Virus record (IMG/VR): IMGVR_UViG_2711768067_000013
Coordinates: 1-19,806 of that record
Origin: a virus
Taxonomy: Duplodnaviria > Heunggongvirae > Uroviricota > Caudoviricetes
DNA length: 19,806 nt
Strand: one strand, 5' to 3'
Below, piece after piece: positions 1 to 15,559 of this stretch (within the stretch, counting starts at the first letter, position 1; every line of letters begins with the position of its first letter). The position numbers and the translations under genes are program-made. The notes beneath the pieces were generated by a model. That model was not told the origin of the DNA and ran no database searches. It saw only the letters and a list, made by a program, of their open reading frames with translations.

Positions 1-411
1 ATGCCTGCCCCCGTCGTCCTGATCCTTGCGGCCGGGCGTGGAGAGCGCTTTCTCGCCTCCGGGGGAAATACCCATAAGTGTATCGGCTGGCGTCAGTCCC
101 CGGAGGTTGCGCCTTATCGCTGGCCATTTGAAGAAAACGGGAGAACTTTCGACCTTGCGATTGAACCGCAGATTACGACTAATGATCTGCGTCTGATGTT
201 GAGGCTGGCTCTTGCCGGCGGAGGAATAACAATTGCCACTCAGGAAACTTTCAGGCCATATATTGAAAGCGGTAAGCTTGTATCGCTGCTTGATGACTTT
301 CTTCCACAATTTCCGGGCTTCTATCTGTATTTCCCACAGCGTCGCAATATTGCACCAAAGCTCCGCGCCCTGATTGACTACGTCAAAGAATGGCGGCAGC
401 AATTGGTTTAA
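1..411 (+). CDS. LysR-family transcriptional regulator, C-terminal effector-binding region (5' part lies outside the window)
   Basis: ORF runs from the window edge to TAA at 409-411. The translation (…FDLAIEPQITTNDLRLMLRLALAGGGITIATQETFRPYIESGKLVSLLDDFLPQFPGFYLYFPQRRNIAPKLRALIDYVKEW) has the usual LysR C-terminal pattern. Call is from recalled family signature, not a search. Confidence 0.6.
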   Translation: MPAPVVLILAAGRGERFLASGGNTHKCIGWRQSPEVAPYRWPFEENGRTFDLAIEPQITTNDLRLMLRLALAGGGITIATQETFRPYIESGKLVSLLDDFLPQFPGFYLYFPQRRNIAPKLRALIDYVKEWRQQLV

Positions 412-527
412 ATAGCTGCACCTGCACTGCCTGATGACAGAACAGTATTTTGATGAATTGCCAAGGTTACAATGGCACAAATGCGGCACAGGAGGAAACG
501 TGGTGTATTTAAATATGGGGTAACTCT

Positions 528-556
528 TTGATTTTAATGGTGCCGATAATAGGAGT
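528..556. repeat. Left direct repeat / candidate att site: 19-nt tRNA-Thr 3'-end core (538-556, tggtgccgataataggagt) plus ~10 bp of similar flank (ttgattttaa)
   Basis: Identical 19-mer recurs at 13601-13619, where it continues as a tRNA fragment; the upstream flank ttgatttt..taa is also shared with 13588-13600. The integrase gene starts ~140 bp to the right. Confidence 0.6.
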
Positions 557-698
557 AAAACACTCGATTAATCTCGTGTTAATGCCATCACCTACGACCA
601 TTACTAATTGATTGAATCTTATAGAAAAATCATCATTTTCTATGCGTCACAATCAATTTTCACATTACAAACGCTCCGACACTTTAGCCGGAGATTTT

Positions 699-1976
699 AT
701 GAGATACAAGCCTAACCAATACTTAATCTGTGATTCTTACGGTAACTACTATTTAAGGATCACGCTGCCTGTGTATATGCAGCCCTTTTTTGAAGGAAAA
801 AGGACGTTTGTCAGAAGTCTGCACACAAGTAATCTTCGTGTTGCACGTAGAAAGCGTGATCAGATTGCAGATGAATACCATTGCTTACGGGAGAGTGTTG
901 CCCCTGTAAACAGCACAATAGAAAACACGCTGGAACTGTTACGCAGTAAGGCTAAATACGCCAAAACAGCTACCAGAATGCAAGATACAGCGTCTTCGTG
1001 TCCGTCATTGCTTAAAATTCTTGAAATCTACCTGACAATTAACAGCACGAAGAAGAAGCCAGCCACTTTAGCTAAGGCAAGAAAAGCGGTAGAGATGTTT
1101 CTCTCCTACCGTAAAAAGCCTGATATTGCATTGCAAGATGTAAGCCGCACCACTGTTACAGGCTGGATTGAACACATGCAAAAAACTCTTTCACAACAAT
1201 CAATTGCAAATTATATCAGCCCAATGGCCCAGCTATGGGAATTAGCTTCATCACGTTACCACGATGCGCCAGAAAGGGCGCTCTCCCCCTGGCGAGGGCA
1301 TAGGCTTGATGTGGCACAAAGTAGAGAGAGCTACGAGGCATTTTCTAACAAAGAGCTATTGCAGGTGTTGCAAGTATTTTCCGGTAATTCAGCAGAAAAC
1401 AAAGAAATGATGGCTTTGTGTCTTATCGGTTTATATACAGGTATGCGGATCAATGAGATAGCAAGTCTCACAATAGACGATGTGAAAGAGATCGAAGGTG
1501 TGCTGTGTTTTGAAATCACACAGGGAAAAACGAAAGCTGCGGCACGTCTTGTGCCTGTGCATAGCCTTATCACTCCGTTGGTGTTGTCGCTGCGTGAAAA
1601 GCCTCACAATGGCTTTTTGTTCTATCACGCCAGCATTACAGAGCGTGCTGATGGTAAACGTTCCACGTGGCATACACAACGATTTACAAGAGCTAAACGA
1701 AAGGCTTTAGGGGAAAAGGGAACAGAAAGGAAAGTGTTTCATTCTCTGAGACACGGAGTAGCACAGCTTCTTGATCGAAATCAAATTCCAGAAGACAGGA
1801 TCGCCCTTCTCCTGGGCCATACACGCGGCAATACAGAAACATTCCGCACATATAGCAAAAATGCAGCTTCTCCAATAGAGCTTAAAAAATATATTGAGCT
1901 TTTACGCTACCCTGAAATAGAGAAAGGCTTATCAATCAATAAAAAATCAAATTTAAGGCGTAAAACAACGCTATAG
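699..1976 (+). CDS. int: Tyrosine-type site-specific integrase (phage/genomic-island type)
   Basis: ORF 612-1976 begins at TTG; the ATG at 699 follows a GGAG (688-691), and another in-frame ATG lies at 642. Catalytic-domain signatures are present: GMRINEI (Arg), HSLRHGVAQLL (His-x-x-Arg), LLGH, and TFRTYSK (Tyr). It sits beside the tRNA-derived repeat. Confidence 0.85.
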   Translation: MRYKPNQYLICDSYGNYYLRITLPVYMQPFFEGKRTFVRSLHTSNLRVARRKRDQIADEYHCLRESVAPVNSTIENTLELLRSKAKYAKTATRMQDTASSCPSLLKILEIYLTINSTKKKPATLAKARKAVEMFLSYRKKPDIALQDVSRTTVTGWIEHMQKTLSQQSIANYISPMAQLWELASSRYHDAPERALSPWRGHRLDVAQSRESYEAFSNKELLQVLQVFSGNSAENKEMMALCLIGLYTGMRINEIASLTIDDVKEIEGVLCFEITQGKTKAAARLVPVHSLITPLVLSLREKPHNGFLFYHASITERADGKRSTWHTQRFTRAKRKALGEKGTERKVFHSLRHGVAQLLDRNQIPEDRIALLLGHTRGNTETFRTYSKNAASPIELKKYIELLRYPEIEKGLSINKKSNLRRKTTL

Positions 1977-1984
1977 ATGTAATA

Positions 1985-2018
1985 AAGAGGCTTCAATATA
2001 GACTGATGCCTCTTTTAT
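1985..2018. terminator. Bidirectional rho-independent terminator between the convergent int gene and the 225-aa gene
   Basis: Stem agaggc (1986-1991) pairs with gcctct (2008-2013) around a 16-nt loop, followed by TTTTAT on the plus strand and an A/T-rich tract on the minus strand. Confidence 0.45.
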
Positions 2019-2056
2019 GATTATCTCGTTACAGAGCGTTTCATAGGCGTTTAAGG

Positions 2057-2734
2057 CTATTGTTTAAATACTGGCGTTACAACGTCTTGCCCTGGGCTTT
2101 TTTGATTTTTCTGTTCTGTTGTATTTACCTGCATTTTAACCTGTCCCCCTACAGATTTATTTGGTGCTGTTTTTACCGCAATTGCGCTTGTAGTTGCTTT
2201 AGAGACAAGACGGATTTGCTCAAAATCAAGAGTAAACAATAGGCTTTCGCTTGCTTCTTCTTCATAAGACATGCCAACTAACACAACGTTGTCATAATTT
2301 TTTAACTCAGTGACAAGTAGGAAAGGTTGGCGACTGTCCATCAACTGATTTAGGTATTCAAGCATAAGCATACGTCTATTGCCGTTAATTCCCGCATTCT
2401 TAATCATATCGGGATTGAGCTTCAATACGGTTTCAGAGATACGCCCCTGTAATGTGAACTTGTTATTCCGTATTTGAACATGATCACTAACTTCTGATCC
2501 TGATTCGACAGCATAGCTTGTAACGTCTGCATTTCTGCTAATTTTCGTCGATTCCACGCTATCAAATGATAATGCCTGGTAGTCATTGTAAGCAGCATTT
2601 GCACCACTGCCGAGGTTAGAGGCAATGATCGCAAAGCCGTTACCCCCTTTAGTTGTTCTACCGTTGCTATCGTTGCTTGTGCTGTTGATTTTCGCCTCAG
2701 TCGGGCGACCAATGGTTAACGGACCCATTGCCAT
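2057..2734 (-). CDS. Hypothetical protein (225 aa), last gene of the structural-like block
   Basis: ATG at 2734 with AAGGA about 9 nt upstream; 48 bp after the stop of the 613-aa gene. No recognisable catalytic motif. Confidence refers to coding status, not function. Confidence 0.5.
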   Translation of the reverse strand: MAMGPLTIGRPTEAKINSTSNDSNGRTTKGGNGFAIIASNLGSGANAAYNDYQALSFDSVESTKISRNADVTSYAVESGSEVSDHVQIRNNKFTLQGRISETVLKLNPDMIKNAGINGNRRMLMLEYLNQLMDSRQPFLLVTELKNYDNVVLVGMSYEEEASESLLFTLDFEQIRLVSKATTSAIAVKTAPNKSVGGQVKMQVNTTEQKNQKSPGQDVVTPVFKQ

Positions 2735-2781
2735 AATTTGTAATCCTTATTTAAGGGGGCTAAACAGCCCCACAGTGATGA

Positions 2782-4623
2782 TTAATAGGTTGACCCGCCT
2801 GACATAACACCCAGCGTTAATAGCTTGCTAAACTCAGCGGAGGATGCCTTTGATTTGAAGTCGATAAATTCGCTCAATCGTCCGGTGTCTGATTCGATAG
2901 TTAGCGGCACTTCTGCATTTACTTGTAATTCTGGATTGAAGTTAATAACAGGTGCAAAGGTGTAAGAAGGAGCCTTGAAAGCTTGTTGTGCTGCACTCTG
3001 TTTCAGATTTGCAATGTTTTGTCCTTCGAGACTGTATTGATTTACAGCCTGCGCCCCACCTACCGTTTCTTCTGGCATAAACCAGCTTTTAATAGTGTTA
3101 ACCAGGGAATTGCTGTTATCTGGCTTAATTGTTCCGGTGCCAGCGCCTTTATATTGATCAGGAGTGAGATTAGAAAGATTCTGCTTCATTCCTTCGTTAG
3201 ATAGTGGCGGTGCATCCCCTAAATTCTTCTGAATAGCTTCCGTCTTCTCGTCGTTTTTCATCAGCCAGTTGATTGTTTTCATTACGGCGTTAACCAATCC
3301 GCCGATAGCCTCGCCTAATTTGGTAAACATTGGCAGCATTGCAACCATGCTCTTTTTAAACTCTTCAATCACTTTCGGATCAAGAGATTTCATAAAGCCA
3401 TCAACAAAGGCGATCCCTTGTGAGTCAGAAAGCCCACTAAGTGCATTATTCAGTTCACGGAATTTAATAACGCTTTCCTGTTGTGCCTGCGTTACCCAGC
3501 GCCCTGATTCTCGTTGTTCTCGTGCTGATTGTTCCACTTCTTTAGCGGAGCGTGTCCAGTATTTAGAGGTGAGCATCAAATCATCAGCCAGATCTTCCAG
3601 ACGACTACCGATTTGTGCATCTGAATAGCCTTTAGCTACCATTCCCTGAACTGCTTTACTAACCAGACCAGCCGGATTATCAGCAAAGTCTTTTAGATCC
3701 TTTTTAGTTAGGAATCCTTCATTCATTAAAGTATTGATGCCGCTATCGCCGCCCTTCCATTCTCCTTTACCAGTTTTCTTATCAACTACATATTCAGCTT
3801 CATCATAAGATTTGGTTGCACGTTCACGCACATCTTTCATCTGATCGAGATACTTACGTTTACCTTGTTCGCCCATCATTGAATCAACGCCGTTTTTATA
3901 CGCCCATTGCTCAATATTGTTCATCTGGTTAACGTCTACACCGCCCAGCTTGGCACGGCTATACAATTCACCCAGCGTTTCAGCATTCGCAAAGCTGTTA
4001 GTAACAAATTCAGAGGCTTTGCTCATAGCCATATATGCAGCGCCAGCGCCTAAGCCGCCCAGCATAACAGCCGCAGCACCGCCGCCAATACTCCCGCTAC
4101 CCTTAACAGGTGCATAGGCTTTAGCGTGAGCGTTACGATTGCCATTAATCTTACGTTGTTGCTGTTGTAGGCGTTTCATTTGGCTATTCATACGTGCCAG
4201 ACTAATAGCGCCTCTTTCATATTGGAGGGCAATTTCTCTAGCCTGTGCAATAGCTTTATATTGTTCCGCTACAGAAAGACGGTGCAATGCGCTAATGCTT
4301 GCTCCAACGTCTAAAAGCTTTAATTCAGCCTTCTCTTTCCGTGCTGCCAGGGCTTTTTGTTCTCTTGCAACTACACGTTGAGCGGCTAATTGTGCTTTAG
4401 CATTGGCTTTATCTGCCTGTGCTTGCTTTTTAGCAATATCGTCTACGTCTTTTTTTGCTTTAGCGGTTGATTGTTTATGTGTCTTAACACGCAATTCTAT
4501 ATCTTTCACCGCCGCCATTTGTTTACGAAGTTTTTCTACTTCTGCTTTTGCTTTCTCTAATGATGGTCGGTTAACTTCGAAGGTGACAACGTTCGAGAGG
4601 CGTGCCACGTTTAGCTCTAACAT
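2782..4623 (-). CDS. 613-aa protein with an N-terminal K/A/E/Q-rich coiled-coil region (~160 aa) and a Gly/Ala-rich hydrophobic segment (GSGSIGGGAAAVMLGGLGAGAAYMAM); tape-measure-like architecture, function unproven
   Basis: Long ORF with ATG at 4623 and AGGGA upstream. The composition resembles phage tape-measure or internal virion proteins, but this is an architectural impression only. Confidence 0.6.
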   Translation of the reverse strand: MLELNVARLSNVVTFEVNRPSLEKAKAEVEKLRKQMAAVKDIELRVKTHKQSTAKAKKDVDDIAKKQAQADKANAKAQLAAQRVVAREQKALAARKEKAELKLLDVGASISALHRLSVAEQYKAIAQAREIALQYERGAISLARMNSQMKRLQQQQRKINGNRNAHAKAYAPVKGSGSIGGGAAAVMLGGLGAGAAYMAMSKASEFVTNSFANAETLGELYSRAKLGGVDVNQMNNIEQWAYKNGVDSMMGEQGKRKYLDQMKDVRERATKSYDEAEYVVDKKTGKGEWKGGDSGINTLMNEGFLTKKDLKDFADNPAGLVSKAVQGMVAKGYSDAQIGSRLEDLADDLMLTSKYWTRSAKEVEQSAREQRESGRWVTQAQQESVIKFRELNNALSGLSDSQGIAFVDGFMKSLDPKVIEEFKKSMVAMLPMFTKLGEAIGGLVNAVMKTINWLMKNDEKTEAIQKNLGDAPPLSNEGMKQNLSNLTPDQYKGAGTGTIKPDNSNSLVNTIKSWFMPEETVGGAQAVNQYSLEGQNIANLKQSAAQQAFKAPSYTFAPVINFNPELQVNAEVPLTIESDTGRLSEFIDFKSKASSAEFSKLLTLGVMSGGSTY

Positions 4624-4657
4624 GTTAATTGTTTCCCTGTATTATGATTGTTGTTTG

Positions 4658-4855
4658 TTATTGTTTTTTAGAACAGTAGTATGTAATTGCTTCAAAAGTG
4701 CTGCATCCAGTCTGAAACACACGCTGCCGCACATTATTTGCATCAATTTCTAAAAGGCGGCAAAGCGCCGATGTGTTTATAACTGATTCCTCGCTAATAG
4801 CTGCCAGTTCTTTTACAGATTTAAGAATTAATGCCTGTGAATTTTCTGTATTCAT
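4658..4855 (-). CDS. Hypothetical small protein (65 aa)
   Basis: ATG at 4855 with a purine-rich stretch upstream; lies between the 343-aa and 613-aa genes on the same strand. Confidence 0.4.
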   Translation of the reverse strand: MNTENSQALILKSVKELAAISEESVINTSALCRLLEIDANNVRQRVFQTGCSTFEAITYYCSKKQ

Positions 4856-5018
4856 TGGTTTTCTCTCACATATATATTTTTATTTGGTTTTGTAGACAGT
4901 AGAAAAACAAAAAGGGCAAAGAGATTCGTTACTGTATTTGCGCCTACAGGTTAGTTAATCCCTTTACCCTTAGCCCCGATTATTTTCAGACGATGGGGAA
5001 TCGTCTATTAACGCTTTA

Positions 5019-6050
5019 TTACGCAGCAGATCCGAAGATGATAGCTTGCGGAATGTTGTTTACTGGCAGATAAGATGTCTCAGTAACCACAGATGGGAAT
5101 TGGAATTCATCCTTGATTAGATATTGGTGATGTAACACGGCATCTTGACCTAACTCAGCATGACGCACACCAACGCCGCTATGAAGCTGGTAACACTGTG
5201 CCGCTTTATCCATTACCGGAACAATTGCGAAACCGTTCTCTCCGATGTGAGCAACAATCTCAGGAAACATTGACACATCAATAGCAGTGATCCCGCCAAT
5301 CTGGAAAGAGTCATAGGCTGGGTTAGAATCAACCATACGGGTAAACAGGGCCGTAGCACTCGCATCACCTGCATATTTCACCATGTCACTGATCAGCGGG
5401 TTAGATGACAAACCATCAGCAGCAGCGCCAGCAGCAAAGATAATTACACCAGTTCGCTTTGCAGCAAGAGCAGACCCCAGCTTTTCACTCTGTAAGCGCA
5501 CCGCTTTACGAATAGCAAGGAACGGGTTAACAGTAGTCGATGCAAAGTCGATAGCGGGTACCGTGGTTTTAGCCTGACCGTCGAGGAAGTCGAGATCACC
5601 TTGTCCGGCATATTCAGATTCAACTTTCAGTCCCAGCAGCGCGGTAATCAGATCCACTTCAACACGGTTTGCGTGTGAACGGTAATGAGCCTCAGAGAAA
5701 TCATTAACCGCTACCAGCATAGCATCAGAACGGTTTGGATATTGGCGGCTGTATTGTTCCAGGTCACGAGAAGTAACAGCGTTAATACTGCCGACGTGTT
5801 TCATCTGGAAAAGTTTGTTTGACCATTCCTGACGTTTAGAGGCGTTCCAGTCGCTTTGAGCGTAAGGCGAGGTTTCCCCAGCTACCTGCACAAACTGATC
5901 AATCAGGTCGGTAAGAAGAATGCTGTTTTCTGTATGATATTGCACATCGAACAGATCGAGATTAGTAATCAGGGTATTAAGTGCATTCTCATAAGCAAAT
6001 GGAGTTACTACCGCAGTATTAACACCAAAATATGTTGATAAATCATTCAT
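5019..6050 (-). CDS. 343-aa hypothetical protein, candidate major virion structural protein (capsid- or tail-tube-like); function not established
   Basis: ATG at 6050 with AAGGAAAA 8 nt upstream, and only 14 bp after the upstream 127-aa gene. A stem-loop follows the stop (4988-5006). No enzymatic motifs; the call rests on size and gene context. Confidence 0.6.
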   Translation of the reverse strand: MNDLSTYFGVNTAVVTPFAYENALNTLITNLDLFDVQYHTENSILLTDLIDQFVQVAGETSPYAQSDWNASKRQEWSNKLFQMKHVGSINAVTSRDLEQYSRQYPNRSDAMLVAVNDFSEAHYRSHANRVEVDLITALLGLKVESEYAGQGDLDFLDGQAKTTVPAIDFASTTVNPFLAIRKAVRLQSEKLGSALAAKRTGVIIFAAGAAADGLSSNPLISDMVKYAGDASATALFTRMVDSNPAYDSFQIGGITAIDVSMFPEIVAHIGENGFAIVPVMDKAAQCYQLHSGVGVRHAELGQDAVLHHQYLIKDEFQFPSVVTETSYLPVNNIPQAIIFGSAA

Positions 6051-6064
6051 TATTATTTTCCTTG

Positions 6065-6448
6065 TTAAGTCGTAGGGATCGCAAGTTCTTCATAACCAGC
6101 AATTACAAAGCCGAGAGATTGCAGTTTTGCAATAACACTTGCCTTTTCCATGCTGTTAAATTCAATCCCATCTTCAGCCAGAATAACGAAAGTAGGATGT
6201 GCAACCACTACGCTTTCCTGTCCTTCATAAGCCGGTTCAACTACTACGTGAGCAATATCAGATGCGGTTGTTGCTTTGGTGCCATCGGCTTTCAGCAAAG
6301 CCCCGACAATAAGATCGTCAGTGAGAGGTGAAGCCAGTTTGACGAGGCGATCTTGCAGCACTGGATCAGCAGCGTAAGCTACTACCTTACAGCGTGAACG
6401 GGAGTTATCCGCATTCACTGCTTTTAATTTTCCATATGGGTTAGCCAT
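6065..6448 (-). CDS. 127-aa hypothetical protein, possibly a head-decoration or tail-terminator-like partner of the 343-aa protein
   Basis: ATG at 6448 with AAAGGAAAA upstream, an RBS context almost identical to that of the 343-aa gene; 4-bp gap from the upstream 65-aa gene. Confidence 0.55.
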   Translation of the reverse strand: MANPYGKLKAVNADNSRSRCKVVAYAADPVLQDRLVKLASPLTDDLIVGALLKADGTKATTASDIAHVVVEPAYEGQESVVVAHPTFVILAEDGIEFNSMEKASVIAKLQSLGFVIAGYEELAIPTT

Positions 6449-6452
6449 AAGA

Positions 6453-6650
6453 TTATTTTCCTTTCAGTTGTTTAATTTTAGATTTAAGGGCATCAGCAAG
6501 ACTAACCGCATCAGCCGATTTAAATAATTGAGCAGTGGTAGAACGAAGACTTTCGGGAGTAACTCCCAACAGTGCGGCAACCTTAATGAGGTTTTCATCA
6601 CTAACAATCATCGTTTCCCCGTCTTTGCTGATAATCATTTCTTGTTTCAT
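6453..6650 (-). CDS. Hypothetical small protein (65 aa from the ATG at 6650; the track ORF extends to a TTG at 6692)
   Basis: ATG at 6650-6648 with AGGAA 9 nt upstream; first gene after the terminator-like hairpin at 6682-6731. Confidence 0.45.
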   Translation of the reverse strand: MKQEMIISKDGETMIVSDENLIKVAALLGVTPESLRSTTAQLFKSADAVSLADALKSKIKQLKGK

Positions 6651-6681
6651 AAATAACGTTCCTGTTAGTGCCAGACAAATA

Positions 6682-6731
6682 AAAAGCCCCAATGCCGTAA
6701 GAGGTTAATTCTGACCAGCAAAGGGGCTTTA
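6682..6731 (-). terminator. Terminator-like hairpin immediately upstream of the structural-like block (minus-strand sense)
   Basis: AAAGCCCC and GGGGCTTT arms (6682-6690 and 6724-6731) around a ~33-nt loop, followed on the minus strand by TTTTTATTT. The large loop makes this a weak call. Confidence 0.3.
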
Positions 6732-7326
6732 ACGTGCGGGCAATTACATAATTGATAAGTTAAACTATAAGAGGATTAAACATATCAGCAAATACACTTT
6801 TTAAATATACTTGATGATATGCTTAAAGGGTGAATAGATACTCCTGAAAACATGCTCTTAGGAAAACATGCGGAATCAATCAGGAATATCTATTCGGGGC
6901 GCGGTGGCCAACCGCTATCTTTCATGGTGTGGATGCACCAGTCAGATTTTAAGGAATCACTATTCCAATCTACTCACAGATTAAATTTTTAATAATGATT
7001 AACTACACCAACAGTAATCTACCGTTTCAGAAAATCGTTTTTACAACCAAAGCTTATAGATCCGCATTCTATAAAACCCGTTTTGCTATCAATATTTCCA
7101 AAGGTTATTGCACAATTCTTAGCTAAACTCTCTACTTGCGGCTAACGCTACGCAGATGATAGTTTTTTGACAACAACTTAATAGATTATTCTGTTACTAA
7201 CTTCTGTCATTAAATAAGAGTTTAATGATGTTAGTAAATAGTTATAAAATATAACTATCAGTGTAAGGCTCTTTAATGTTTTCGGACAAAATAAGGAGCT
7301 TTAGGATAAGCATAGATGAAAATAAG

Positions 7327-7364
7327 AGCGGGAAGGGCAAGGAGATAACACCTACCCGCTTTTA
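7327..7364. terminator. Bidirectional terminator-like hairpin in the 930-bp spacer
   Basis: agcgggaagg (7327-7336) pairs with cctacccgct (7351-7360) with one mismatch; T-tracts follow on both strands (TTTTAT plus; CTTATTTTC minus). It lies ~270 bp downstream of the 102-aa gene in minus sense. Confidence 0.4.
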
Positions 7365-7633
7365 TCAAAATTAAGCACAATGCCTAACAACATTCATCAA
7401 CACAACGTAGAAACAATCAACAATCAAAGAGGGAGTTATGATTATTCTAAAACTTCTTGAGGGGATGGAAGGTAATATTTGTTAGAGGTTAATGCCACTC
7501 AACCCTTGAGGCTATCACCTTCCATATGCAGGGATTTATGACAGTAGAAGGATTAACACCAGTCAAAACCTTTTTATCTACCCCTAATATCATTATATAA
7601 TGAAATTGTTATAAATGCAAATGATTTTCATTA

Positions 7634-7942
7634 TCACTTAGAAGAAATAGCACTTTTTGCTAAATCATCTACTAATTGCTGAATCTCTTCACTTGCAGCC
7701 TTTAACGTGCTGGCGCTGCTGCTGATGGTTTGAGTGCACAGCCTGGCATCGTCCTCTGATAGCTCTAAATCGCTCACCAGAGAGATAAAATCGTCAAGGC
7801 TTACATTCACCTTCATTAAGCTAATAACGCATTGAGAGAGCGTGTAATCGCATAAATCTGAATAGGCTTGATTTATTCTTGTTTGTAGTGAGATAGTCAG
7901 ATCTAAAAGTTGTTCCATTGCATTGCTAATATCTTCTTCCAT
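7634..7942 (-). CDS. Hypothetical acidic protein (102 aa)
   Basis: ATG at 7942 overlaps the stop of the upstream 67-aa gene (TAATG), suggesting translational coupling. Confidence 0.5.
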   Translation of the reverse strand: MEEDISNAMEQLLDLTISLQTRINQAYSDLCDYTLSQCVISLMKVNVSLDDFISLVSDLELSEDDARLCTQTISSSASTLKAASEEIQQLVDDLAKSAISSK

Positions 7943-8145
7943 TATGCGGCTTCTCCTTGTAATGCATCATTAATCATATTCAATACGATGTTAAAAGGTG
8001 TCTTGAGCGTCAGCACTTCATCACGATAACGCTCTAATGCTTCGTAGTCTTCTGTTTCTTTTGCCAGTCGGATTAACTCAGCATAGTTTTTTGCATCAGA
8101 CAGGATCATCTGAAATAATTGTGTTTCCTGTATATGGTCGATCAT
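7942..8145 (-). CDS. Hypothetical protein (67 aa)
   Basis: ATG at 8145 with AAGGAA 6 nt upstream. Confidence 0.5.
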   Translation of the reverse strand: MIDHIQETQLFQMILSDAKNYAELIRLAKETEDYEALERYRDEVLTLKTPFNIVLNMINDALQGEAA

Positions 8146-8162
8146 TGTTGTTCCTTTTATTT

Positions 8163-8549
8163 TTAGTTTGAACGTTTGTTAGATGCGAGAGTGTCGATCA
8201 GGTGCTGCATCAGATCTGTTTCTGTAACGCCGCCTACCTGATTGTTGAAACTATTAAAACCGATATAGTGCCTGTAGCTGGTAAAATTTAACAGCTGCCA
8301 TTTCTTTAATGTGCCAGGTTCTATAATCGTTGTCTTTCTTGTTCTGGGTTTGAAATACACACCATCACCCATTGATTGAATAATTTCTAATTCTTCGTTT
8401 GTAAGTGGTGGGCTGTTAGATTCTAAAATGAAGATTATCTCTTCCCCTGGAATTTCGTTATTGGTGTGTGTCGGTGGACGTTGTCTTGTTGAATTGAAGT
8501 TACTGTTTTTTTCAATACGTTTTAAGTTGTTCTTTTTCTTTCTTCCCAT
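8163..8549 (-). CDS. Hypothetical protein (128 aa), basic N-terminus
   Basis: ATG at 8549 with AGAGGGA upstream. Confidence 0.5.
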   Translation of the reverse strand: MGRKKKNNLKRIEKNSNFNSTRQRPPTHTNNEIPGEEIIFILESNSPPLTNEELEIIQSMGDGVYFKPRTRKTTIIEPGTLKKWQLLNFTSYRHYIGFNSFNNQVGGVTETDLMQHLIDTLASNKRSN

Positions 8550-8645
8550 TTTCCCTCTTTTTATGTGGATTATAAAAACTGAATGCCATAGTTACGATGA
8601 ATATCGCCATAAATGCATTTGCCATATGTATTGCCCGATCTGTTG

Positions 8646-8903
8646 TTATTGATTGTTTGTGATAAACAATTCAAAATCTTTGTTTAATTTCAAAAGACGA
8701 AATGTAGTGTGGTTAATCCCTTCATAATCCAGCACACCGAACGATGTAAAATGATTTACGTGTTGTGCGCTGTAGCCGCCTAAACTACAAAAGCTAACCA
8801 CTGTCGGTGGTGAAAACTCTATTTCCAAAATAGCTTTTAAAATGTTGTATCCGCTTTCAGTTATTTCAATAGTTTTGTTTCCTATAGTGATGTTATAAGT
8901 CAT
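8646..8903 (-). CDS. Hypothetical protein (85 aa)
   Basis: ATG at 8903 with AAGGAG 6 nt upstream. Confidence 0.5.
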   Translation of the reverse strand: MTYNITIGNKTIEITESGYNILKAILEIEFSPPTVVSFCSLGGYSAQHVNHFTSFGVLDYEGINHTTFRLLKLNKDFELFITNNQ

Positions 8904-8912
8904 TTATTCTCC

Positions 8913-9587
8913 TTAGAATGGTATTGAATCGTATATTTCACTTTTTTCTCTTAGAGATATTATCAGATCGTGAAAAGCCTGTTTCTCAAGATAGATATTC
9001 TTTGAATCTAATGCTCGTTTTACAAAATCTTCTGTTTCTTCGTGCGGTGGCTTCTTGTTATCAAGGGAAAGAAGCCAGTTAAAAATCTTTTCCGGGAACT
9101 CTGATTCCTGTATTTCTTCTTCAACGATGATTTCTGAAACATTCAATATTTCATTAGATTCGTTTTCTTTCTCAGAAGGATCAGGTAGTGATGACTCTCT
9201 AGGGGGAGTAATATGTGCATCTGTGAGAGGTAGCGCACGTAATTTTAATGGACGTTTTGGGATTCGTTCTCCGACCTCTTCTAAAAGACCGATTTTAATC
9301 ATAAGACCAATCAATTCATTAACTGTCTTACGGCTACAGCCACAAACTTTACTTAACTTCGTTTGTGTTTCAAAACATATCCCCCCTGATTTCTCCCAAT
9401 CTGAAACATAGCAATATAATTTTTGCATTTCTGCACTAAACTTCGCTTTTCCATCCTCAATATTTGAGGAGTAGATGAATTCAATCTCACAAAAGTAGTG
9501 TGGTATATTCAAAGTTCGGTCTTTAATTTCTCCTGTTTGTTGATCAACATACTGGTATTTTTCACGAATCAATTTAATTTTAGACAT
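8913..9587 (-). CDS. 224-aa putative DNA-binding protein (winged-helix-like segment SRKTVNELIGLMIKIGLLEE); candidate regulator or replication-initiator-like protein
   Basis: Track ORF 8913-9644 starts at GTG; the ATG at 9587 has a strong AAGGAG 8 nt upstream. The C-terminal half is acidic. Function is inferred from the motif only. Confidence 0.5.
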   Translation of the reverse strand: MSKIKLIREKYQYVDQQTGEIKDRTLNIPHYFCEIEFIYSSNIEDGKAKFSAEMQKLYCYVSDWEKSGGICFETQTKLSKVCGCSRKTVNELIGLMIKIGLLEEVGERIPKRPLKLRALPLTDAHITPPRESSLPDPSEKENESNEILNVSEIIVEEEIQESEFPEKIFNWLLSLDNKKPPHEETEDFVKRALDSKNIYLEKQAFHDLIISLREKSEIYDSIPF

Positions 9588-9640
9588 TAGAATTATCTCC
9601 TTATAAATCACGCTTAATGCGCTACTAAAGTGAATGAGGA

Positions 9641-9808
9641 TCACTTACCCTTTTTTTGTTTGATGTTCTCTGCTGCTTCAGTAATGATTTCTAACATCAA
9701 ATCACTGACCATAATTTGCCTTTTCTTGGCTTCAGCAAATAAAATCTTGAAAATTTCAGGGTCAACGTGTAGGTAAGTGCGTGGAATTGGTTTCTTGGTT
9801 TCGCTCAT
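9641..9808 (-). CDS. 55-aa ribbon-helix-helix-like small protein (MSETKKPIPRTYLHVDPEIFKILFAEAKKRQIMVSDLMLEIITEAAENIKQKKGK); absent from the ORF track because it is under 60 aa
   Basis: Hand-translated: ATG at 9808-9806 with AGGAGAAGGAG upstream, TGA at 9643-9641. A predicted strand followed by two helices fits Arc/CopG-type repressors. Confidence 0.45.
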   Translation of the reverse strand: MSETKKPIPRTYLHVDPEIFKILFAEAKKRQIMVSDLMLEIITEAAENIKQKKGK

Positions 9809-9829
9809 AGTTTTCTCCTTCTCCTGTTA

Positions 9830-10012
9830 TTATTCTTTCTCTGCTCCTGCCTTACGCAGTTCATCAATAATTTTTAGTGCATCGTCAAAACATTTTTCAC
9901 GCTCTGGATAACCACAGCGTCGCGCTGTGTTCCTGTTCATCCTTACTTTAAAACGATTGATCTCACCACGTTTCCAGGCTTCAACTACATCCTGGGGAGT
10001 GAAATACTTCAT
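9830..10012 (-). CDS. Hypothetical protein (60 aa), first gene of the minus-strand array
   Basis: ATG at 10012 with AGGAGG 7 nt upstream; 21 bp before the RHH-like ORF. Confidence 0.5.
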   Translation of the reverse strand: MKYFTPQDVVEAWKRGEINRFKVRMNRNTARRCGYPEREKCFDDALKIIDELRKAGAEKE

Positions 10013-10134
10013 TAATTAACCTCCTATTCTATTTGGTTAAAAGAAAAAACACCTTGCAAGCCTTGTTGGGCTTCAAAGTGCGGTGCATTGGTTTAATTAC
10101 TTAGAGGATAAGAATGTTTTCTGTCCCTAATATT

Positions 10135-10163
10135 ACTTTACCACGACTAAAAGCTTTTGTCAA
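10135..10163 (-). promoter_or_regulatory. Candidate sigma70 promoter for the minus-strand array (TTGACA, 17-bp spacer, TAAAGT)
   Basis: Minus-strand TTGACA is the reverse complement of 10158-10163; TAAAGT is the reverse complement of 10135-10140. Motif match only. Confidence 0.3.
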
Positions 10164-10324
10164 CCCCTATCCATAAAAATATTGATCATTTTCAGTGTGT
10201 TATAATTTTTCTTAGCAATTCGTGCTCTTACGGGTGCTCCTATTCTTCCTTATTCTCTAAAACGCTCTAAAACGCCCTCTGACGAGGTTTTGATAAATAC
10301 AATACATTCACTTATGTAGAGGCT

Positions 10325-10780
10325 GTTTAGCTCGCCAGAGGCTTATTTAAGGGGCTTATTTTGTATTTGTTAGGTATATGGGAAGATGATGATAGATAAA
10401 ATCTAATTTCAGACATCTTATAAAATACCTGTAAAGCTCCTCAGAAGCTCTATAACGAGCTAATCTATTACCGCTAAGTGTTTCCCTGCCTTATATACGT
10501 TTAGCTCGCCTACGGCTTGATTTAAGCGGTAGAATCTTATTTAACCTTCAACTACTAAAACCATTCTTTCTTTTTTGTTTGTTGTTGGTTGTTGTCTGTG
10601 TCTATGTGCTAACATCGCTAACGCGTAGCACACAAGGTTATTGCACTCGTCAGAGTATTGCACAATAGATTTTCTCTTAAATAGATTGATGATCGTTAGA
10701 TTGGCGTAAGCCTCATCAATGGAACTATTGAAGCGCACAGCGCAAGACTATTTAGCCTTACGCAAGCCGTAGGCTATTTG
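10325..10780. repeat. Repeat family in the noncoding region: two direct ~28-31-bp copies (10325-10352, 10499-10529) and one inverted, itself palindromic copy (10749-10780)
   Basis: Copy 1 gtttagctcgccagaggcttatttaagg; copy 2 gtttagctcgcctacggcttgatttaagcgg; copy 3 reverse complement contains GCCTACGGCTTG. A TTG/TGT-rich tract (about 10565-10610) and several CTAAC pentamers lie between copies 2 and 3. Confidence 0.5.
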
Positions 10781-10961
10781 CACATAGTAGATTACATATT
10801 CGTTGTGAGCGGCATTAGCGAACATATATCTACTAACTAACATCAACAAACAAAAACTATGTGTTATGACAAGCAGTCTAACGACTAACACTCTAACTTG
10901 TGCAAGGTTCTGGCGAATGCCAATAGATTAAGGGATAGTCAAAGACTCCCTAACGGGTATA

Positions 10962-11045
10962 CCTATAATTATTCTTATAAAGATAAAAAAGAATTATATT
11001 ATATAGTTTAATAGTTAGTTTTATTATTAGTATTATAGATGTTAG
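10962..11045. other. Very AT-rich tract next to the iteron-like array; candidate DNA-unwinding element
   Basis: About 85 bp of almost pure A/T directly upstream of the palindrome array. Confidence 0.35.
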
Positions 11046-11053
11046 TCTTATTG

Positions 11054-11224
11054 TGTAACCTTTCGTTACAACCAATCATCTGCCGATGTAACGTATCGTT
11101 ACTACCGATGTGTAATATCGTTACATTCAATAATTAGTCTATGTAACGAATCGTTACTACAAAATTTCTTACAGAGAGTATTTCAGATAGCTGAATGTAA
11201 CCCATCGTTACATCCATCGTTACA
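11054..11224. repeat. Iteron-like array: five palindromes with a TGTAAC / GTTACA core (11054-11070, 11087-11103, 11111-11125, 11142-11158, 11196-11212) plus an extra half-site (11216-11224); two units form a tandem 22-bp repeat (11083-11126)
   Basis: Read directly, for example TGTAACctttcGTTACA, GTAACGtatCGTTAC, GTAACGaatCGTTAC and TGTAACccatcGTTACA. Could be a replication origin, a recombinase res-like site or a repressor operator. Confidence 0.6.
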
Positions 11225-11661
11225 TCCATTTATCACATAACATCTGTGCAATGATCTTCTAAAAGTGTTTCTTACTATCAAAAATTAAACATCTAAAACA
11301 GGCTTAAATTCAATGTAATTGATGATTAATCCCTGTGTAATTCCTACGTAAAAATTCAATGAAAAGTAGCTTAAAAGTGCAATTCTTACTTTCTTCACTT
11401 TTACATCACTTTCGCAAAGCCTTGTGTAATGCGGCATATAGCGCATCACTGCAAAATTGTTGCTCAATAAACGTTCTATCATTTGTCGAACAAGTTTTCT
11501 TTAATGCAACAAAAAATTATTTTTTCAAAATAAACACACCATTTAATAGCTTGCTAATTTTACCAAAACGTAACTACATGCTTCTCATGCAAGACGTGTA
11601 GTGATAAAGCAGGCTAAATCACCACACTAAAAACCTTCGAATTTCGTAGTGAAAAAAGTCC

Positions 11662-11691
11662 TTTACACACCTAATCAACACGATCAATAAT
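11662..11691 (+). promoter_or_regulatory. Candidate promoter for the serine recombinase (TTTACA, 18-bp spacer, AATAAT)
   Basis: Motif match ~35 bp upstream of the ATG at 11727. Confidence 0.3.
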
Positions 11692-11726
11692 CACTACACA
11701 CAAATCAACACAGAAGGAAAATGAAA

Positions 11727-12278
11727 ATGGCTAATATTGGATACATTAGGGTATCGACTGTGCAACAAAACACAGACCGTCAATTAGCTGGAGTAACTCT
11801 TGATAAAGTCTTTGAAGATAAAGCGTCAGGCAAGAACACTCAGCGCCCACAGTTTGAGGCAATGATGAACTATGTGCGGGAGGGTGACGTGTTACACGTC
11901 CATAGTATTGATCGCCTTTGTCGTAATACAGCCGACCTTCTGGCAACGGTTGAGCAATTAACAGAGCGCGGCGTGTCTGTGCATTTCCATAAAGAAGACT
12001 TTAAGACAGGGAAGAACTCTCCCGCAGGGAATATGATGCTCACAGTGCTTGCAGCAGTGGCACAAATGGAACGTGAAATGATGCTTGAGCGGCAACGTGA
12101 AGGGATCGCCGCAGCTAAGGCCGCTGGGCGTATAGCAAAACGTGGTAATGGAAAAGCAATTGATCGAGCAGGAATTGCTGCCGCTCTCGCGAATGGTGGA
12201 TCAATTCGGAGCGTAGCAAAAGATTTCAGTGTCAGCACACAGACGGTGCAACGTATCAAGAAAGAGCAGGAAGCGTAA
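11727..12278 (+). CDS. Small serine recombinase (resolvase/invertase family, ~183 aa)
   Basis: N-terminus MANIGYIRVSTVQQNTDRQ carries the resolvase catalytic-Ser motif; a C-terminal helix-turn-helix-like region (SIRSVAKDFSVSTQTVQRIKK) follows. The ATG at 11727 is better spaced from the AAGGA than the ATG at 11721. Confidence 0.85.
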   Translation: MANIGYIRVSTVQQNTDRQLAGVTLDKVFEDKASGKNTQRPQFEAMMNYVREGDVLHVHSIDRLCRNTADLLATVEQLTERGVSVHFHKEDFKTGKNSPAGNMMLTVLAAVAQMEREMMLERQREGIAAAKAAGRIAKRGNGKAIDRAGIAAALANGGSIRSVAKDFSVSTQTVQRIKKEQEA

Positions 12279-12618
12279 TGCCTCCTGATATTTGAGAATT
12301 GTCGCTGCGTGGACCTGACGCCGCTGATCTTCTCGTTAAGCGATGATCACGTATGCGCCGATTTCAGAGAAAAAGACAGTAACTGAACTCACTATGAAGG
12401 CTAAACGCATCTTTACACTTGATGAAAACGTTCAAAAAACAACCTAACCCCAAAATTCAACAAATTGCAACACATTGTTTTTAAAAGAAAATTAAATCTA
12501 CATCAAATATTGGTTGACGTAGATTGAGGTGAATAGTAGACTATTAGGGTAAATTACCACCCTTGCAACATCATTTAATGCATGTTCTAATCTTCCTATC
12601 GTAAAACCGGAGGAAGTT

Positions 12619-12777
12619 ATGCATTTACTTTCAAAACATCTTCACACTATTCACTTTCTCGTTATTGATGTATTCGTTGTGGCTATTAGTTACCGCATTT
12701 GCATCGCTTCCAGTGAAGAGATGGACGCTGTTGCAATTATTGCTCAAGCAATGGCGATGTTAACTAAACGACTTTAA
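12619..12777 (+). CDS. 52-aa small hydrophobic protein (MHLLSKHLHTIHFLVIDVFVVAISYRICIASSEEMDAVAIIAQAMAMLTKRL); not in the ORF track
   Basis: ATG at 12619 with GGAGGA 5 nt upstream; contains a predicted membrane-like helix. Confidence 0.4.
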   Translation: MHLLSKHLHTIHFLVIDVFVVAISYRICIASSEEMDAVAIIAQAMAMLTKRL

Positions 12778-12843
12778 TAATTTCACTATCAGGTGCATAA
12801 ACACATCTTTGATCGCTGGATGTGTTATGCGCCTACTGGTGGT

Positions 12844-12996
12844 TCAATCCTTAAGCCATTTCAACTCACTAAGGAGTTTTCTTTCTTCGTTCTCTCGCTG
12901 TTTACGCTCTAGCCAGGCTTTTCCCTCTGGCGTAGACAGGAACTTACGAGCGTGAATCTTGCGGTTATTACGTTTTATAGCTGCAATGTTTTTCAT
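12844..12996 (-). CDS. 50-aa highly basic small protein (MKNIAAIKRNNRKIHARKFLSTPEGKAWLERKQRENEERKLLSELKWLKD); not in the ORF track
   Basis: Hand-translated: ATG at 12996-12994 with GAGG upstream, TGA at 12846-12844. Convergent with the 52-aa ORF. Confidence 0.4.
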   Translation of the reverse strand: MKNIAAIKRNNRKIHARKFLSTPEGKAWLERKQRENEERKLLSELKWLKD

Positions 12997-13600
12997 CGTG
13001 TGCCTCTGTATTCATATGAAAATTAACAAGTTACATACTACACAGGGAGACTACGCATAAAACACAATACAAGTAAAGATACATTTTCAAGACAATAGGA
13101 GCCATAAAGCGCCTTTGATGGTTATACCAAAAAATAAGCGCCGTAGGCGTATCCACTAAAAGGGCTTTTTCACAAAAGCTATGAAGTCTTAGCAGTTCTT
13201 CTCTTATCAGGCACCCGTTGTACTCCGGTGGACGAAACCGTGCTAGAGCTTGATTCTTTCCCGATCAAGTTAGGTTTTGAAGAGGTGGGCTTTGATCCAC
13301 TATTGCACTTAAAACTCTTCCCATCATTTAGCCTGTTTATCCTCTGCAACGTCTCACGACGTGTAGCATCATTGGACACCGCGCCAGGTGTGGAACATCT
13401 TGCTAAGAGTTTTGGTAGAAGGTTTAGAGACGGTGGCACGTCTTCCAGCTTCAAAGGAACTTGTTACGAGGTTGAGCCTGGGAACTACTCGCCCATACGT
13501 GTTACACTACCAAAGCCCATAACAACGTATAGGCGTTTGTAAGTGATAACAGAAGATACAATTTCTTAGAGAAGTTAAGCTAAGTTATTGATTTTCTTAA

Positions 13601-13646
13601 TGGTGCCGATAATAGGAGTCGAACCTACGACCTTCGCATTACGAAT
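13601..13646 (-). tRNA. Truncated tRNA-Thr (CGU anticodon) 3' fragment, 46 nt (anticodon loop through T-arm, acceptor 3' strand and CCA); att-site remnant, not a functional gene
   Basis: Reverse complement reads ATTCGTAATGCGAAGGTCGTAGGTTCGACTCCTATTATCGGCACCA, with the GGTTCGA T-loop and CCA end; sequence diverges from tRNA after 13646. As I recall it, this matches the 3' part of E. coli thrW. Confidence 0.7.
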
Positions 13647-13951
13647 TATAAGAATCCGCTTCTAATTCAAAGCATTACCCCATCAACACTGCGCTCACAC
13701 GTCCCACCACATCAAAACATGTAAAGCCTTGCAAGCCATTGCGAGGCCTTATGTGTCTCAGTTTTGTCCCACCTTGTATTACGACTTACATAGCCAATGA
13801 AGATAAACGTGACGACAAACGGCGCAGCAGTCTTCTTTTCCTTCATACTTTCCCCACCCAGCATGCATACCTTTATGCCATAACTGAAGTTTATGTCTGT
13901 TATGAGCGAAAAGCAGACATTACACTAAATTATTTAGGTTTACTTTTATCA

Positions 13952-14824: not shown

Positions 14825-14928
14825 CTCACCCACTCTATAAACTGATTATCCATATAAACTACATTATCATTTTTAACTGCTCAACATAGATTAACATAGC
14901 GCGATGCTAACAGTGTCAACTCCTGGCA

Positions 14929-14950
14929 CAGGGCTGTTGTTGCAGCCCTG
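14929..14950. other. Perfect 8-bp palindrome with 6-nt spacer (CAGGGCTG ttgttg CAGCCCTG) between the recombinase stop and the nuclease-ZnF gene
   Basis: Read directly; no flanking T-tract on either strand, so probably not a simple terminator. Confidence 0.5.
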
Positions 14951-14956
14951 ACAACC

Positions 14957-15559
14957 TTAGACTTCAATCGATTCAGAGATCTCTAACACATCATCTACTT
15001 CAATACCCAGATAACGGACTGTGCTTTCCAGTTTCTTATGGCCCAACAGAAGTTGGATCACCCGAAGATTCTTGGTTTTCTTGTAGATCAGGTAAGGTTT
15101 TGTTCTTCTCATGGAATGAGTGCTGTAAAGCGAATCTTCGAGACCAAGCTTTTCTACCCACCCATGAAAAATTCGGTTGTATTGCCGGGTAGATATGAGC
15201 TGATTAGTTCCGACCAGAAACCGAAACAAGAAGTCTTTACTATGCAAATTGCCAAGCATTATCAATGCAGCAACAGCTTCTCTTGTCCCTTTGGTTATCT
15301 CAAACTGCACAGGGCTACCGGTTTTCTGTTGCAGCACCGTAGCTCTGCTTGAAGCAGAGCTACCATATGCAACATCAGATACTTTGAGTTTGACCAGATC
15401 ACAGCCTCGTAGCTTACTGTCCAGGGCCATATCGAACTGAGCTAAATCGCGCGTTTTATCTTCCAGTTCAAGCCGGATTCGGATCCCCCAGATATGAGAT
15501 ATCTGAAGTGGTCTTTTTTGGCCGATGATACGGTCTTTGTTCCACGGTGACGTGTTCAT
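14957..15559 (-). CDS. Short tyrosine recombinase (~200 aa, catalytic domain only, FimB/FimE-like size)
   Basis: Track ORF starts at TTG 15613; the ATG at 15559 has AGGAGA upstream. Catalytic signatures: LRGCDL (Arg), HSMRRT (His-x-x-Arg), LLGH, and TVRYL (Tyr). No N-terminal arm-binding domain. Confidence 0.8.
   Translation of the reverse strand: MNTSPWNKDRIIGQKRPLQISHIWGIRIRLELEDKTRDLAQFDMALDSKLRGCDLVKLKVSDVAYGSSASSRATVLQQKTGSPVQFEITKGTREAVAALIMLGNLHSKDFLFRFLVGTNQLISTRQYNRIFHGWVEKLGLEDSLYSTHSMRRTKPYLIYKKTKNLRVIQLLLGHKKLESTVRYLGIEVDDVLEISESIEV

Follow-up and report, generated by a model that had tools for sequence, protein, structure and literature searches.

A six-gene virion-protein block on an enterobacterial island that is probably a satellite of virulent Stephanstirmvirinae phages

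Introduction

Elements that resemble a phage-inducible chromosomal island (PLEs), the satellites of phage ICP1 in Vibrio cholerae, carry a large serine recombinase as integrase and a RepA_N-type initiator. Those phage-inducible chromosomal islands that form capsids (cf-PICIs) encode, in addition to their capsid protein, a portal, a protease, head-tail connectors and a small terminase; they are not known to encode tail proteins. P4, whose helper is P2, and cos-type Staphylococcus aureus pathogenicity islands (SaPIs) such as SaPIbov5 carry a copy of the helper's terminase site and are thereby packaged by the helper terminase; the Ccm protein of SaPIbov5 is a homologue of the helper capsid protein that makes small capsids. 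In PLE particles the coat protein of ICP1 itself is remodelled with an external scaffold, as the title of structure entry 8g1r states. The Odn protein of ICP1 is a T5orf172 nuclease with a PLE RepA-like N-terminal domain and cuts the PLE origin at its iterons (PMC8263062). Tai systems, encoded on satellites and prophages, act at tail assembly and block tail formation (PMC11364771). Here we analyse a stretch of 19,806 nucleotides, positions 1 to 19,806 of the IMG/VR virus record IMGVR_UViG_2711768067_000013 (hereafter the window), and within it a block of six genes at 2057-6650 that is predicted to encode capsid shell proteins and inner parts of a contractile tail.

This block is likely to be the virion-protein module of a 13.1-kb integrated satellite of virulent Stephanstirmvirinae, namely of Phapecoctavirus (phAPEC8-like) and Justusliebigvirus (phi92-like) phages. 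Somewhat more guardedly, we propose that the island represents a widespread PLE-like family of satellites in Enterobacteriaceae, the first known to bring along a capsid shell as well as a tail core of its own, which would be packaged via a copied repeat-start site and which helpers would counter with multi-specific, Odn-like nucleases made from captured Rep domains. No account of the island, or of any satellite of Stephanstirmvirinae, came up in full-text searches, which reached few subscription journals.

With PLEs the island shares the general plan of a chromosomal island of about 13-18 kb that would parasitise a virulent myophage, an iteron replicon with several Rep DNA-binding alleles, and phages in which a T5orf172/GIY-YIG-type nuclease is fused to a DNA-binding domain taken from the satellite initiator, as in Odn (PMC8263062); the best structural matches of its capsid protein also include the ICP1 coat as found in PLE particles (8g1r). 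PLEs, however, have no capsid, cement, tape measure or tube initiator genes, whereas the island has all four. Its tyrosine integrase and HTH_36-type Rep, its hosts (Enterobacteriaceae instead of V. cholerae), its linked phages (Stephanstirmvirinae instead of ICP1) and the absence of detectable sequence homology to the PLE families mean that it is not itself a PLE. The phage nucleases associated with it differ from Odn in stacking two island-derived domains, at 88-100% identity compared with 42% for Odn. Like the cf-PICIs of Enterobacteria, the island has its own HK97-fold capsid instead of remodelling that of a helper, and would borrow helper tails; unlike them it has no detected portal, protease, connectors or small terminase, which sets it outside this class, and it adds a tape measure and a tube initiator, its presumed helpers being virulent 150-kb myophages rather than temperate phages. 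As in P4 and the cos-type SaPIs, a copied helper terminase recognition site is putatively present, but theirs is the cos of temperate helpers, and what the island copies is the beginning of a virulent phage's short direct terminal repeat. Unlike P4 and the SaPIs, the island lacks homologues of Sid, Psu, Delta and CpmAB and a primase. Scans against Pfam, PHROG and NCBIfam, which took in most open reading frames (ORFs) of at least 55 aa within 600-12300 (those at 10541-10738 and 11285-11482 were left out), gave no match to psu, sid, delta, alpA or a primase-helicase, so that the island is not P4-like. Finally, Tai systems also target the tail assembly step by satellite- or prophage-encoded proteins, but these are not homologues of tape measure or tube-initiator proteins. 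The island's tail proteins are full-length homologues with conserved docking ends and for this reason point to incorporation into tails, not to blockage.

Results

Organisation and conservation of the block

Comparison of sequences directly supports what we report on gene identities, island borders, Rep alleles and their co-varying repeat clusters, the mimic of the phage genome end, phage chimeras, selection and distribution. As an earlier note on the window had described, six co-oriented, tightly spaced genes of 65, 127, 343, 65, 613 and 225 aa make up the block; all are on the minus strand of 2057-6650 in the ORF listing, and their intergenic gaps, read from 6650 to 2057, are 4, 14, 163, 34 and 47 nt. 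The first gene (6453-6650) encodes 65 aa counted from its ATG, or 79 aa from an upstream TTG at 6692. It is followed by the genes of a gpD-like capsid decoration or cement protein (6065-6448, 127 aa) and of a predicted HK97-fold major capsid protein of the lambda gpE family, PF03864 (5019-6050, 343 aa). A second 65-aa gene (4658-4855), with a helix-turn-helix-like segment, separates the capsid gene from that of the predicted tape measure protein (2782-4623, 613 aa), and the last gene encodes a predicted tail-tube initiator of Dit_like fold (2057-2734, 225 aa). The 127-aa and 343-aa genes have in common the ribosome-binding context AGGAAAATAAT, in agreement with the near-identity remarked on in the note.

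With a diverged E. coli copy of the island (L006; labels of this kind are our own) as reference, the ratio of non-synonymous to synonymous substitution rates (dN/dS) was 0.07-0.25 in all six genes, which indicates that the six ORFs are real genes, all of them, by this measure, under purifying selection. The capsid and decoration genes were found in 242 of 5426 complete E. coli genomes (about 4.5%), with up to three copies per genome. Comparison of island gene content among relatives, a check that had been proposed, showed that the gene order of the block is retained in at least 11 enterobacterial genera.

Capsid shell proteins

Profile and structure searches with the 127-, 343-, 613- and 225-aa proteins, also proposed beforehand, led to virion assignments. 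PF03864 was matched by 11 of the 14 members of the capsid family (best 2.6e-9 in Pfam), and relatives of the 343-aa protein are named 'major capsid protein E' in their source records. When an AlphaFold2 (AF2) model of the 343-aa protein was submitted to Foldseek, the top matches were all capsid proteins, among them those of PhiTE (7e-12), the ICP1 coat 8g1r (4e-11), Bas63, Sf14 and lambda. The protein also gave a weak colinear alignment with gp114, the capsid protein of phAPEC8 (23% over 178 aa, E 9e-4), and the family profile, searched against solved structures, a colinear match below threshold to the phi92 capsid protein gp124 (E 0.66). Phage matches of the island capsid protein in the collection searched were limited to distant Aeromonas phage capsids. 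From the structure model and these relatives, the 343-aa protein is predicted to be an HK97-fold major capsid protein of the Phage_cap_E (PF03864) family. The 127-aa protein is a decoration or cement protein of gpD fold. Scans of the 343-aa, the 127-aa and both 65-aa proteins against Pfam and NCBIfam were empty. A reading of the 127-aa protein as a 'tail tube' was considered and rejected: the match of the decoration-family profile on which it would rest was weak (E 0.0087) and the fold search did not support it.

Tape measure and tube initiator

The 613-aa protein matched PHROG 16051 (2e-31) and phi92 gp134 (PDB 21vq_V, 1.8e-20). A tblastn search retrieved 134 phage records, and the matches listed were all phAPEC8/phi92-like phages of 142-154 kb (Stephanstirmvirinae). 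The N-terminus, central blocks and the C-terminus are conserved between the island and phage proteins; in its N-terminal coiled coil the former falls about 45-50 aa short of the latter, a length difference of about 7%. Some island alleles align over about 664 columns and may be near phage length. The 225-aa protein matched Pfam PF21821 (Dit_like) at 1.6e-27, with 96.5 bits against a cut-off of 24.2, as well as phi92 gp135 (PDB 21vq_N, 2.5e-54), the PhiTE tube initiator (9cuy_K, 3.3e-10) and the tube initiator of Pam3. It is 53% identical to phAPEC8 gp103, whose gene directly follows that of the phage tape measure; identity is 50-53% to proteins of Stephanstirmvirinae compared with 27-32% to those of Vequintavirinae, and about 370 nt of the gene are about 84% identical in nucleotides to Phapecoctavirus. 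Going by this homology, the 613-aa protein is a tape measure protein and the 225-aa protein a tail-tube initiator, both of types specific to Stephanstirmvirinae (the lytic myophages of about 150 kb phAPEC8 and phi92).

The block would thus join a capsid-shell pair to the inner-core pair of a contractile tail. The earlier note had left the choice between a capsid-type module and a siphovirus-type tail module. Capsid pair and tail parts turned out to be present together, and the tail part is of the myovirus type, which leaves no place for a siphovirus module; nor does the block hold the terminator-like, tube and chaperone genes that had been suggested. In phAPEC8 the genes run in the order decoration (gp115), capsid (gp114) and, further on, sheath, tube, chaperone, gp105, tape measure (gp104) and tube initiator (gp103), and the island order mirrors this with four of the functions retained (decoration, capsid, tape measure and tube initiator). 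Since the island tape measure is only about 7% off the helper length, re-sizing of the tail is not an obvious purpose, and we judged redirection of tail length unlikely as its main one.

The tube initiator is absent from the islands of Klebsiella, Citrobacter, Kluyvera and Raoultella. Two IMG/VR copies of the E. coli island (L017 and L023) show 99% identity in the capsid and decoration genes, with only 26% identity in the tape measure and 52-64% in the tube initiator; because tail alleles differ where the head genes are 99% identical, tail genes appear to be exchanged as a cassette, independently of the head genes.

A copy of the phage genome-end site

Close to the other end of the island, at 12282-12364 on the minus strand, lies a putative copy of the start of the phage terminal repeat, and thus a putative terminase site, with a predicted cut GCTT|AACG between 12338 and 12337. 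This element is 81% identical over 85 nt to non-coding Phapecoctavirus sequence and contains a core 35-mer with a single mismatch. The first and last 328 nt of the WPEC4 record are identical, as are the first and last 309 nt of KKP 3954, and the matched element straddles the inner boundary of this terminal repeat. For the Justusliebigvirus BME3, a direct terminal repeat of 342 bp has been determined by PhageTerm (PMC12210895), and the first and last 342 nt of its record proved identical when we checked them. The repeat start can be aligned in both genera at ...GTGCTT|AACGCG..., and the repeat end is homologous at ...GCT|CAAC. Other islands carry other versions: the E. coli variants IZSBS22, L018 and L020 have a 46-nt stretch 91-96% identical to the version of BME3, and a Klebsiella island has GCTTAACG followed, at equal spacing, by sequence 83% identical to the Klebsiella phage KP13-26. 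All six aligned island and phage sequences contain GCTTAACG and CAAATATC about 40 nt apart with an intervening segment that tracks the cognate phage, and the site co-varies in three island/phage pairs. A site that terminase recognises and cleaves, and that is kept matched to the local helper, would be expected to show such a pattern, and we putatively assign this role to 12282-12364. The predicted read start for packaged DNA is AACGAGAAGATCAGCGG.

A further 34-nt match, between 7854-7887 and the interior of the WPEC4 repeat (E 0.005), is AT-rich and was set aside as chance. In the BME3 record (PP239276) the first 788 nt recur as an additional internal copy close to the right end, and the annotated 'DTR-L' is 73 nt off the repeat present at the record ends; both are probably quirks of assembly or annotation. 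In the Klebsiella island, a non-coding segment before a 57-aa gene (L003:5956-6001) aligns over 48 nt, at 87.5% identity, with non-coding sequence of many T5-like Salmonella phages, which in one record is annotated as a repeat_region and in several lies near a record end. This may be a shared promoter or a second link to a helper.

Phage nucleases built from island Rep domains

Positions 9196-9820 of the window recur at 95.5% identity (625 nt) in the lytic phage inny (Justusliebigvirus); this segment covers the N-terminal domain of the island's Rep-like protein and a 55-aa gene. The first 140 residues of inny gp184 (367 aa) are 88% identical to the Rep of the window (allele A), and its residues 162-251 match, at 91% identity, the N-domain of another Rep allele, C, found in L019, L022 and L025 (93.5% in nucleotides over 261 nt). 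Its C-terminus matches MUG113/T5orf172 and T5-type homing or GIY-YIG endonucleases, with Pfam scores for the nuclease domain of 2e-4 (MUG113) and 0.025 (T5orf172). A protein of the same build is encoded by Mt1B1_P17 (Phapecoctavirus): the first domain of its gp053 is 99-100% identical to Rep allele B (L018, L021, L023 and L024), at about 99% nucleotide identity over 355 nt, and a second domain of allele C and a nuclease domain follow as in inny gp184. Both proteins thus combine, as Odn does, a T5orf172/GIY-YIG domain with the DNA-binding domain of a satellite initiator.

These chimeras imply that island and phage meet in one cell, that the Rep N-domain binds DNA in a sequence-specific manner and that the price phages pay for the island is high enough for countermeasures to be selected. 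By analogy with Odn, the chimeric nuclease presumably cuts the island origin. The island's 55-aa gene is also present in phages inny (gp185, L034:4430-4612) and muut, at about 95-97% nucleotide identity, and may be a captured island regulator.

Borders, replicon and distribution of the island

The island is bordered by attL (534-561), a 28-nt direct repeat that resembles the 3' end of tRNA-Thr, and attR (13597-13624), which are identical at 26 of 28 positions and enclose 13.06 kb. In many E. coli genomes the match to the window stops at about 13646, and the attR copy matches the attP of SfI/SfII/SfV-type phages. Next to attL, a tyrosine integrase with DUF6538, SAM-like and Phage_integrase domains is encoded on the plus strand (612-1976; the start equivalent to that in RefSeq is at 699). 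It scored 3.2e-17 with PF00589 and 4e-9 with PF20172 in Pfam and 1.5e-32 with the PHROG integrase family, and the RefSeq annotation concurs.

The earlier note had also described the block as free of replication machinery, which does not apply to the island. At 8913-9587 (minus strand) it encodes a Rep-like initiator or regulator, with a variable N-terminal winged-helix DNA-binding domain and a conserved C-terminal part, that matched HTH_36 in Pfam (1.4e-4) and replication-initiation families in PHROG (down to 9e-6). A putative origin follows at 11063-11225, where a k-mer census revealed an iteron cluster of eight copies of a repeat family with the core CGTTAC. The Rep N-domain occurs in at least 3-4 alleles among E. 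coli islands, and islands with other alleles carry other repeat clusters in the putative origin. A small, accessory serine recombinase of the resolvase/invertase type (11721-12278, plus strand; Pfam Resolvase 1e-38) is missing from some island variants in our presence/absence table. In E. coli IZSBS22 (L001 16350-19103) a TrlF-family AAA-like ATPase takes the place of the recombinase end, which hence is a region of variable cargo.

An architecture of small genes, rep, a 128-aa gene, decoration, capsid, a small helix-turn-helix gene, tape measure, sometimes tube initiator, and integrase, about 11-13 kb long and located at differing chromosomal sites with differing integrases, is shared by islands of E. 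coli (including a second lineage), Klebsiella, Citrobacter, Buttiauxella, Kosakonia, Kluyvera, Phytobacter, Scandinavium and Raoultella; homologues of the proteins also occur in Enterobacter, Cronobacter, Pluralibacter and E. albertii. The scanned ORFs contained no terminase, portal, protease, primase, helicase, sheath, tube, baseplate or lysis gene, in line with the note, which had found the first five lacking. Tblastn with the phAPEC8 tube, chaperone, gp102, gp105, gp113, gp116, capsid and decoration proteins gave no match below E 1e-4 in any island copy. Because the full virion, packaging and lysis set is missing from the scanned ORFs, the island must depend on a helper. It is therefore, as phage satellites are, a mobile island with its own integration functions and att repeats and with an incomplete set of virion, packaging and lysis genes.

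Small genes of the block and of the upstream operon

The 65-aa gene at 4658-4855 has an equivalent at the same position in the islands of E. coli, Klebsiella, Citrobacter, Kosakonia, Phytobacter and Scandinavium, with dN/dS of 0.25. Its product had no match in Pfam, PHROG, NCBIfam or PADLOC and is a candidate excisionase, regulator or packaging-specificity factor. We considered it as the counterpart of phAPEC8 gp105, the small gene before the phage tape measure, and found no similarity. In the 65-aa gene at 6453-6650, the first of the block, position and C-terminus are conserved between E. coli and Klebsiella islands, and dN/dS is 0.19; no Pfam, PHROG or NCBIfam family was matched. The C-terminus is a basic amphipathic helix, ..LKSKIKQLKGK, or ..LQELLKQLAKGK in Klebsiella. 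It loosely resembles the C-terminus ..ELISQKAAELKKAQKQ of the coiled-coil, scaffold-like phAPEC8 gp116 (L007:8970-10085). Speculatively, the protein might act as a small mimic of the scaffold, comparable to CpmB of SaPIs, by a similarity that is very short.

Upstream of the block lie four small genes of 102, 67, 128 and 85 aa (7634-8903, minus strand) for which family scans (Pfam, PHROG, PADLOC) were empty; the 128-aa gene is conserved in most genera examined in a tblastn synteny table. Two more small conserved genes on the same strand (9641-10012), of 55 aa (ribbon-helix-helix-like by eye) and 60 aa, are the first of the leftward regulatory and replication operon and are kept in Klebsiella and other genera.

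Discussion

The cycle that we propose for this element is an inference from features of the sequence, from excision and replication through packaging to the size of the capsid and the part played by the tail genes. Infection by a cognate helper would trigger the island, which the tyrosine integrase would excise and the Rep-like protein replicate from the iteron origin. The island's capsid and cement proteins would then assemble on the helper portal, with helper scaffold and protease, into a shell for about 13 kb instead of about 150 kb, and the helper terminase would recognise the GCTT|AACG copy at 12337/12338 and package island DNA. In otherwise helper-built contractile tails, the island tape measure and tube initiator would replace the helper pair, their conserved N-terminal, central and C-terminal segments allowing them to engage the hub, chaperone and terminator of the helper. 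With capsid, tail and terminase resources diverted, helper yield would probably fall, by which the island would defend the host population, and some helpers would counter with the GIY-YIG/T5orf172-type nuclease that bears two tandem DNA-binding domains derived from island Rep.

The earlier note had wavered between a satellite that redirects helper particles, a prophage remnant and a non-virion system; our data favour the first and speak against the other two. Another explanation must be weighed with them, that of a non-transmissible defence island, never packaged, whose structural proteins are dominant-negative decoys that poison head and tail assembly and whose copy of the end site titrates or misdirects the terminase. 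It would fit the nature of these proteins, diverged homologues of phage parts with conserved docking termini, and defences that block the assembly of tails are already known from satellites and prophages (PMC11364771). That phages carry what look like anti-island nucleases suggests that the island harms them, and no packaged form was found in IMG/VR or metagenome contigs. A decoy, however, has no need of an integrase and att sites, of a Rep/iteron replicon with multiple alleles, or of spread over sites and genera at about 11-13 kb, and a capsid and cement pair under purifying selection together with a co-varying, helper-specific terminase site are what a packaged element needs. As interference and transfer coexist in known satellites, harm to phages does not tell against transfer either, and we regard the decoy explanation as unlikely. 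The element at 12282-12364 might alternatively be regulatory or recombinational (an early promoter or operator, or the target of the serine recombinase) and sense infection, with the satellite packaged in some other way. Terminal repeats of large lytic phages often hold early regulatory sequences, the element comes directly after the recombinase gene, and the non-coding region of the Klebsiella island also matches the T5-like non-coding segment that is a repeat_region in one record. Against this, island variants without the recombinase still carry the element, in its BME3 version; the boundary of the repeat is exactly where its conserved core lies, and two phage genera share the dinucleotide position; and a promoter scan found no strong sigma-70-like promoter in it. 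We give this explanation a small chance.

We consider it very improbable that the island arose by decay from a temperate relative of phAPEC8/phi92-like phages and has kept only a few structural genes, an integrase and a regulator. Such an origin would agree with a tRNA-like att site that prophages also use, the prophage debris that adjoins the island and the presence of a mere subset of virion genes. Decay is nevertheless hard to reconcile with an identical gene subset, order and size in at least 11 genera at differing integration sites, or with purifying selection on all six genes. The other phAPEC8 structural proteins tested left no trace in any copy, no temperate Stephanstirmvirinae were matched in the collection searched, where the capsid found distant Aeromonas phage capsids only, and recent exchange with lytic phages (93-99% nucleotide identity) makes the island an active partner.

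Several points weigh against the satellite cycle itself. The role of helper infection as the inducing trigger is something that we infer. In IMG/VR and metagenome contigs, the search for excised or packaged forms gave integrated copies only. The 343-aa protein of the window itself has no Pfam match, and its AF2 model is of low confidence (predicted local distance difference test, pLDDT, of 54). As for the genome-end site, the island copies only the start of the terminal repeat, with no mimic of the repeat end in the window; the phage termini are those of record ends, together with a single statement based on PhageTerm, and the terminus in the record of KKP 3954 shows an offset of 8-11 nt. The MUG113 match of the phage nuclease is just at the Pfam cut-off, at 22.3 bits. 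A satellite that needs its own tape measure has no precedent, and the purpose of the tail genes is the weakest part of our proposal; they might adapt DNA delivery to a small genome, evade entry exclusion or sabotage the virions of the helper.

If the satellite cycle is right, E. coli and its relatives, which are genetically easier, gain a counterpart of the PLE/ICP1 pair of Vibrio, and arms races between satellites and lytic phages in which nucleases are made from stolen DNA-binding domains would be general and not confined to Vibrio. It would also represent a new logic of hijacking, where the satellite supplies the capsid geometry and the inner core of the tail and the helper the rest. One could then test what a tape measure and tube initiator pair adds to DNA delivery or particle specificity, and how a swap of coat protein on a foreign portal re-sets the capsid. 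The phAPEC8/phi92-like phages are popular candidates for therapy and biocontrol, and the island may restrict them or be spread by them. Its carriers, about 4.5% of complete E. coli genomes, include O104:H4 outbreak strains.

Other features of the window

The accessory and small genes had no match in PADLOC, and Rfam returned for the window only a spurious miRNA match. Promoter and terminator scans did not rise above chance (20 promoter-like sites compared with 31.8 expected). A perfect 25-nt inverted repeat links the capsid gene (5409-5433) and the 102-aa gene (7708-7732), so that their mRNAs, transcribed from the same strand, would be complementary at these positions. Other island copies do not conserve the pair, and it was rejected as a functional part of the model; it is possibly due to chance or local conversion.

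The left flank (1-411) is a LysR-type pseudogene next to paoD. In E. coli K-12 the CP4-6 prophage has its intF end at what we take to be this position, which would make it a recurrent integration hotspot. On the right, a second, tandem island follows attR (13625-18300). It encodes a 293-aa protein with matches to a DnaJ-type zinc finger and to REase-like proteins (13952-14833), a truncated tyrosine integrase (14957-15613), an Mrr-type restriction endonuclease (15766-16677) and a LEM-3-like GIY-YIG protein (17100-17924), and looks like defence cargo. The window ends in prophage debris (18274-19806) with a tail-collar or tail-fibre fragment (18568-19074) and a tail-fibre assembly gene (19074-19676); the equivalent region of IZSBS22 contains the pinE invertase and baseplate genes.

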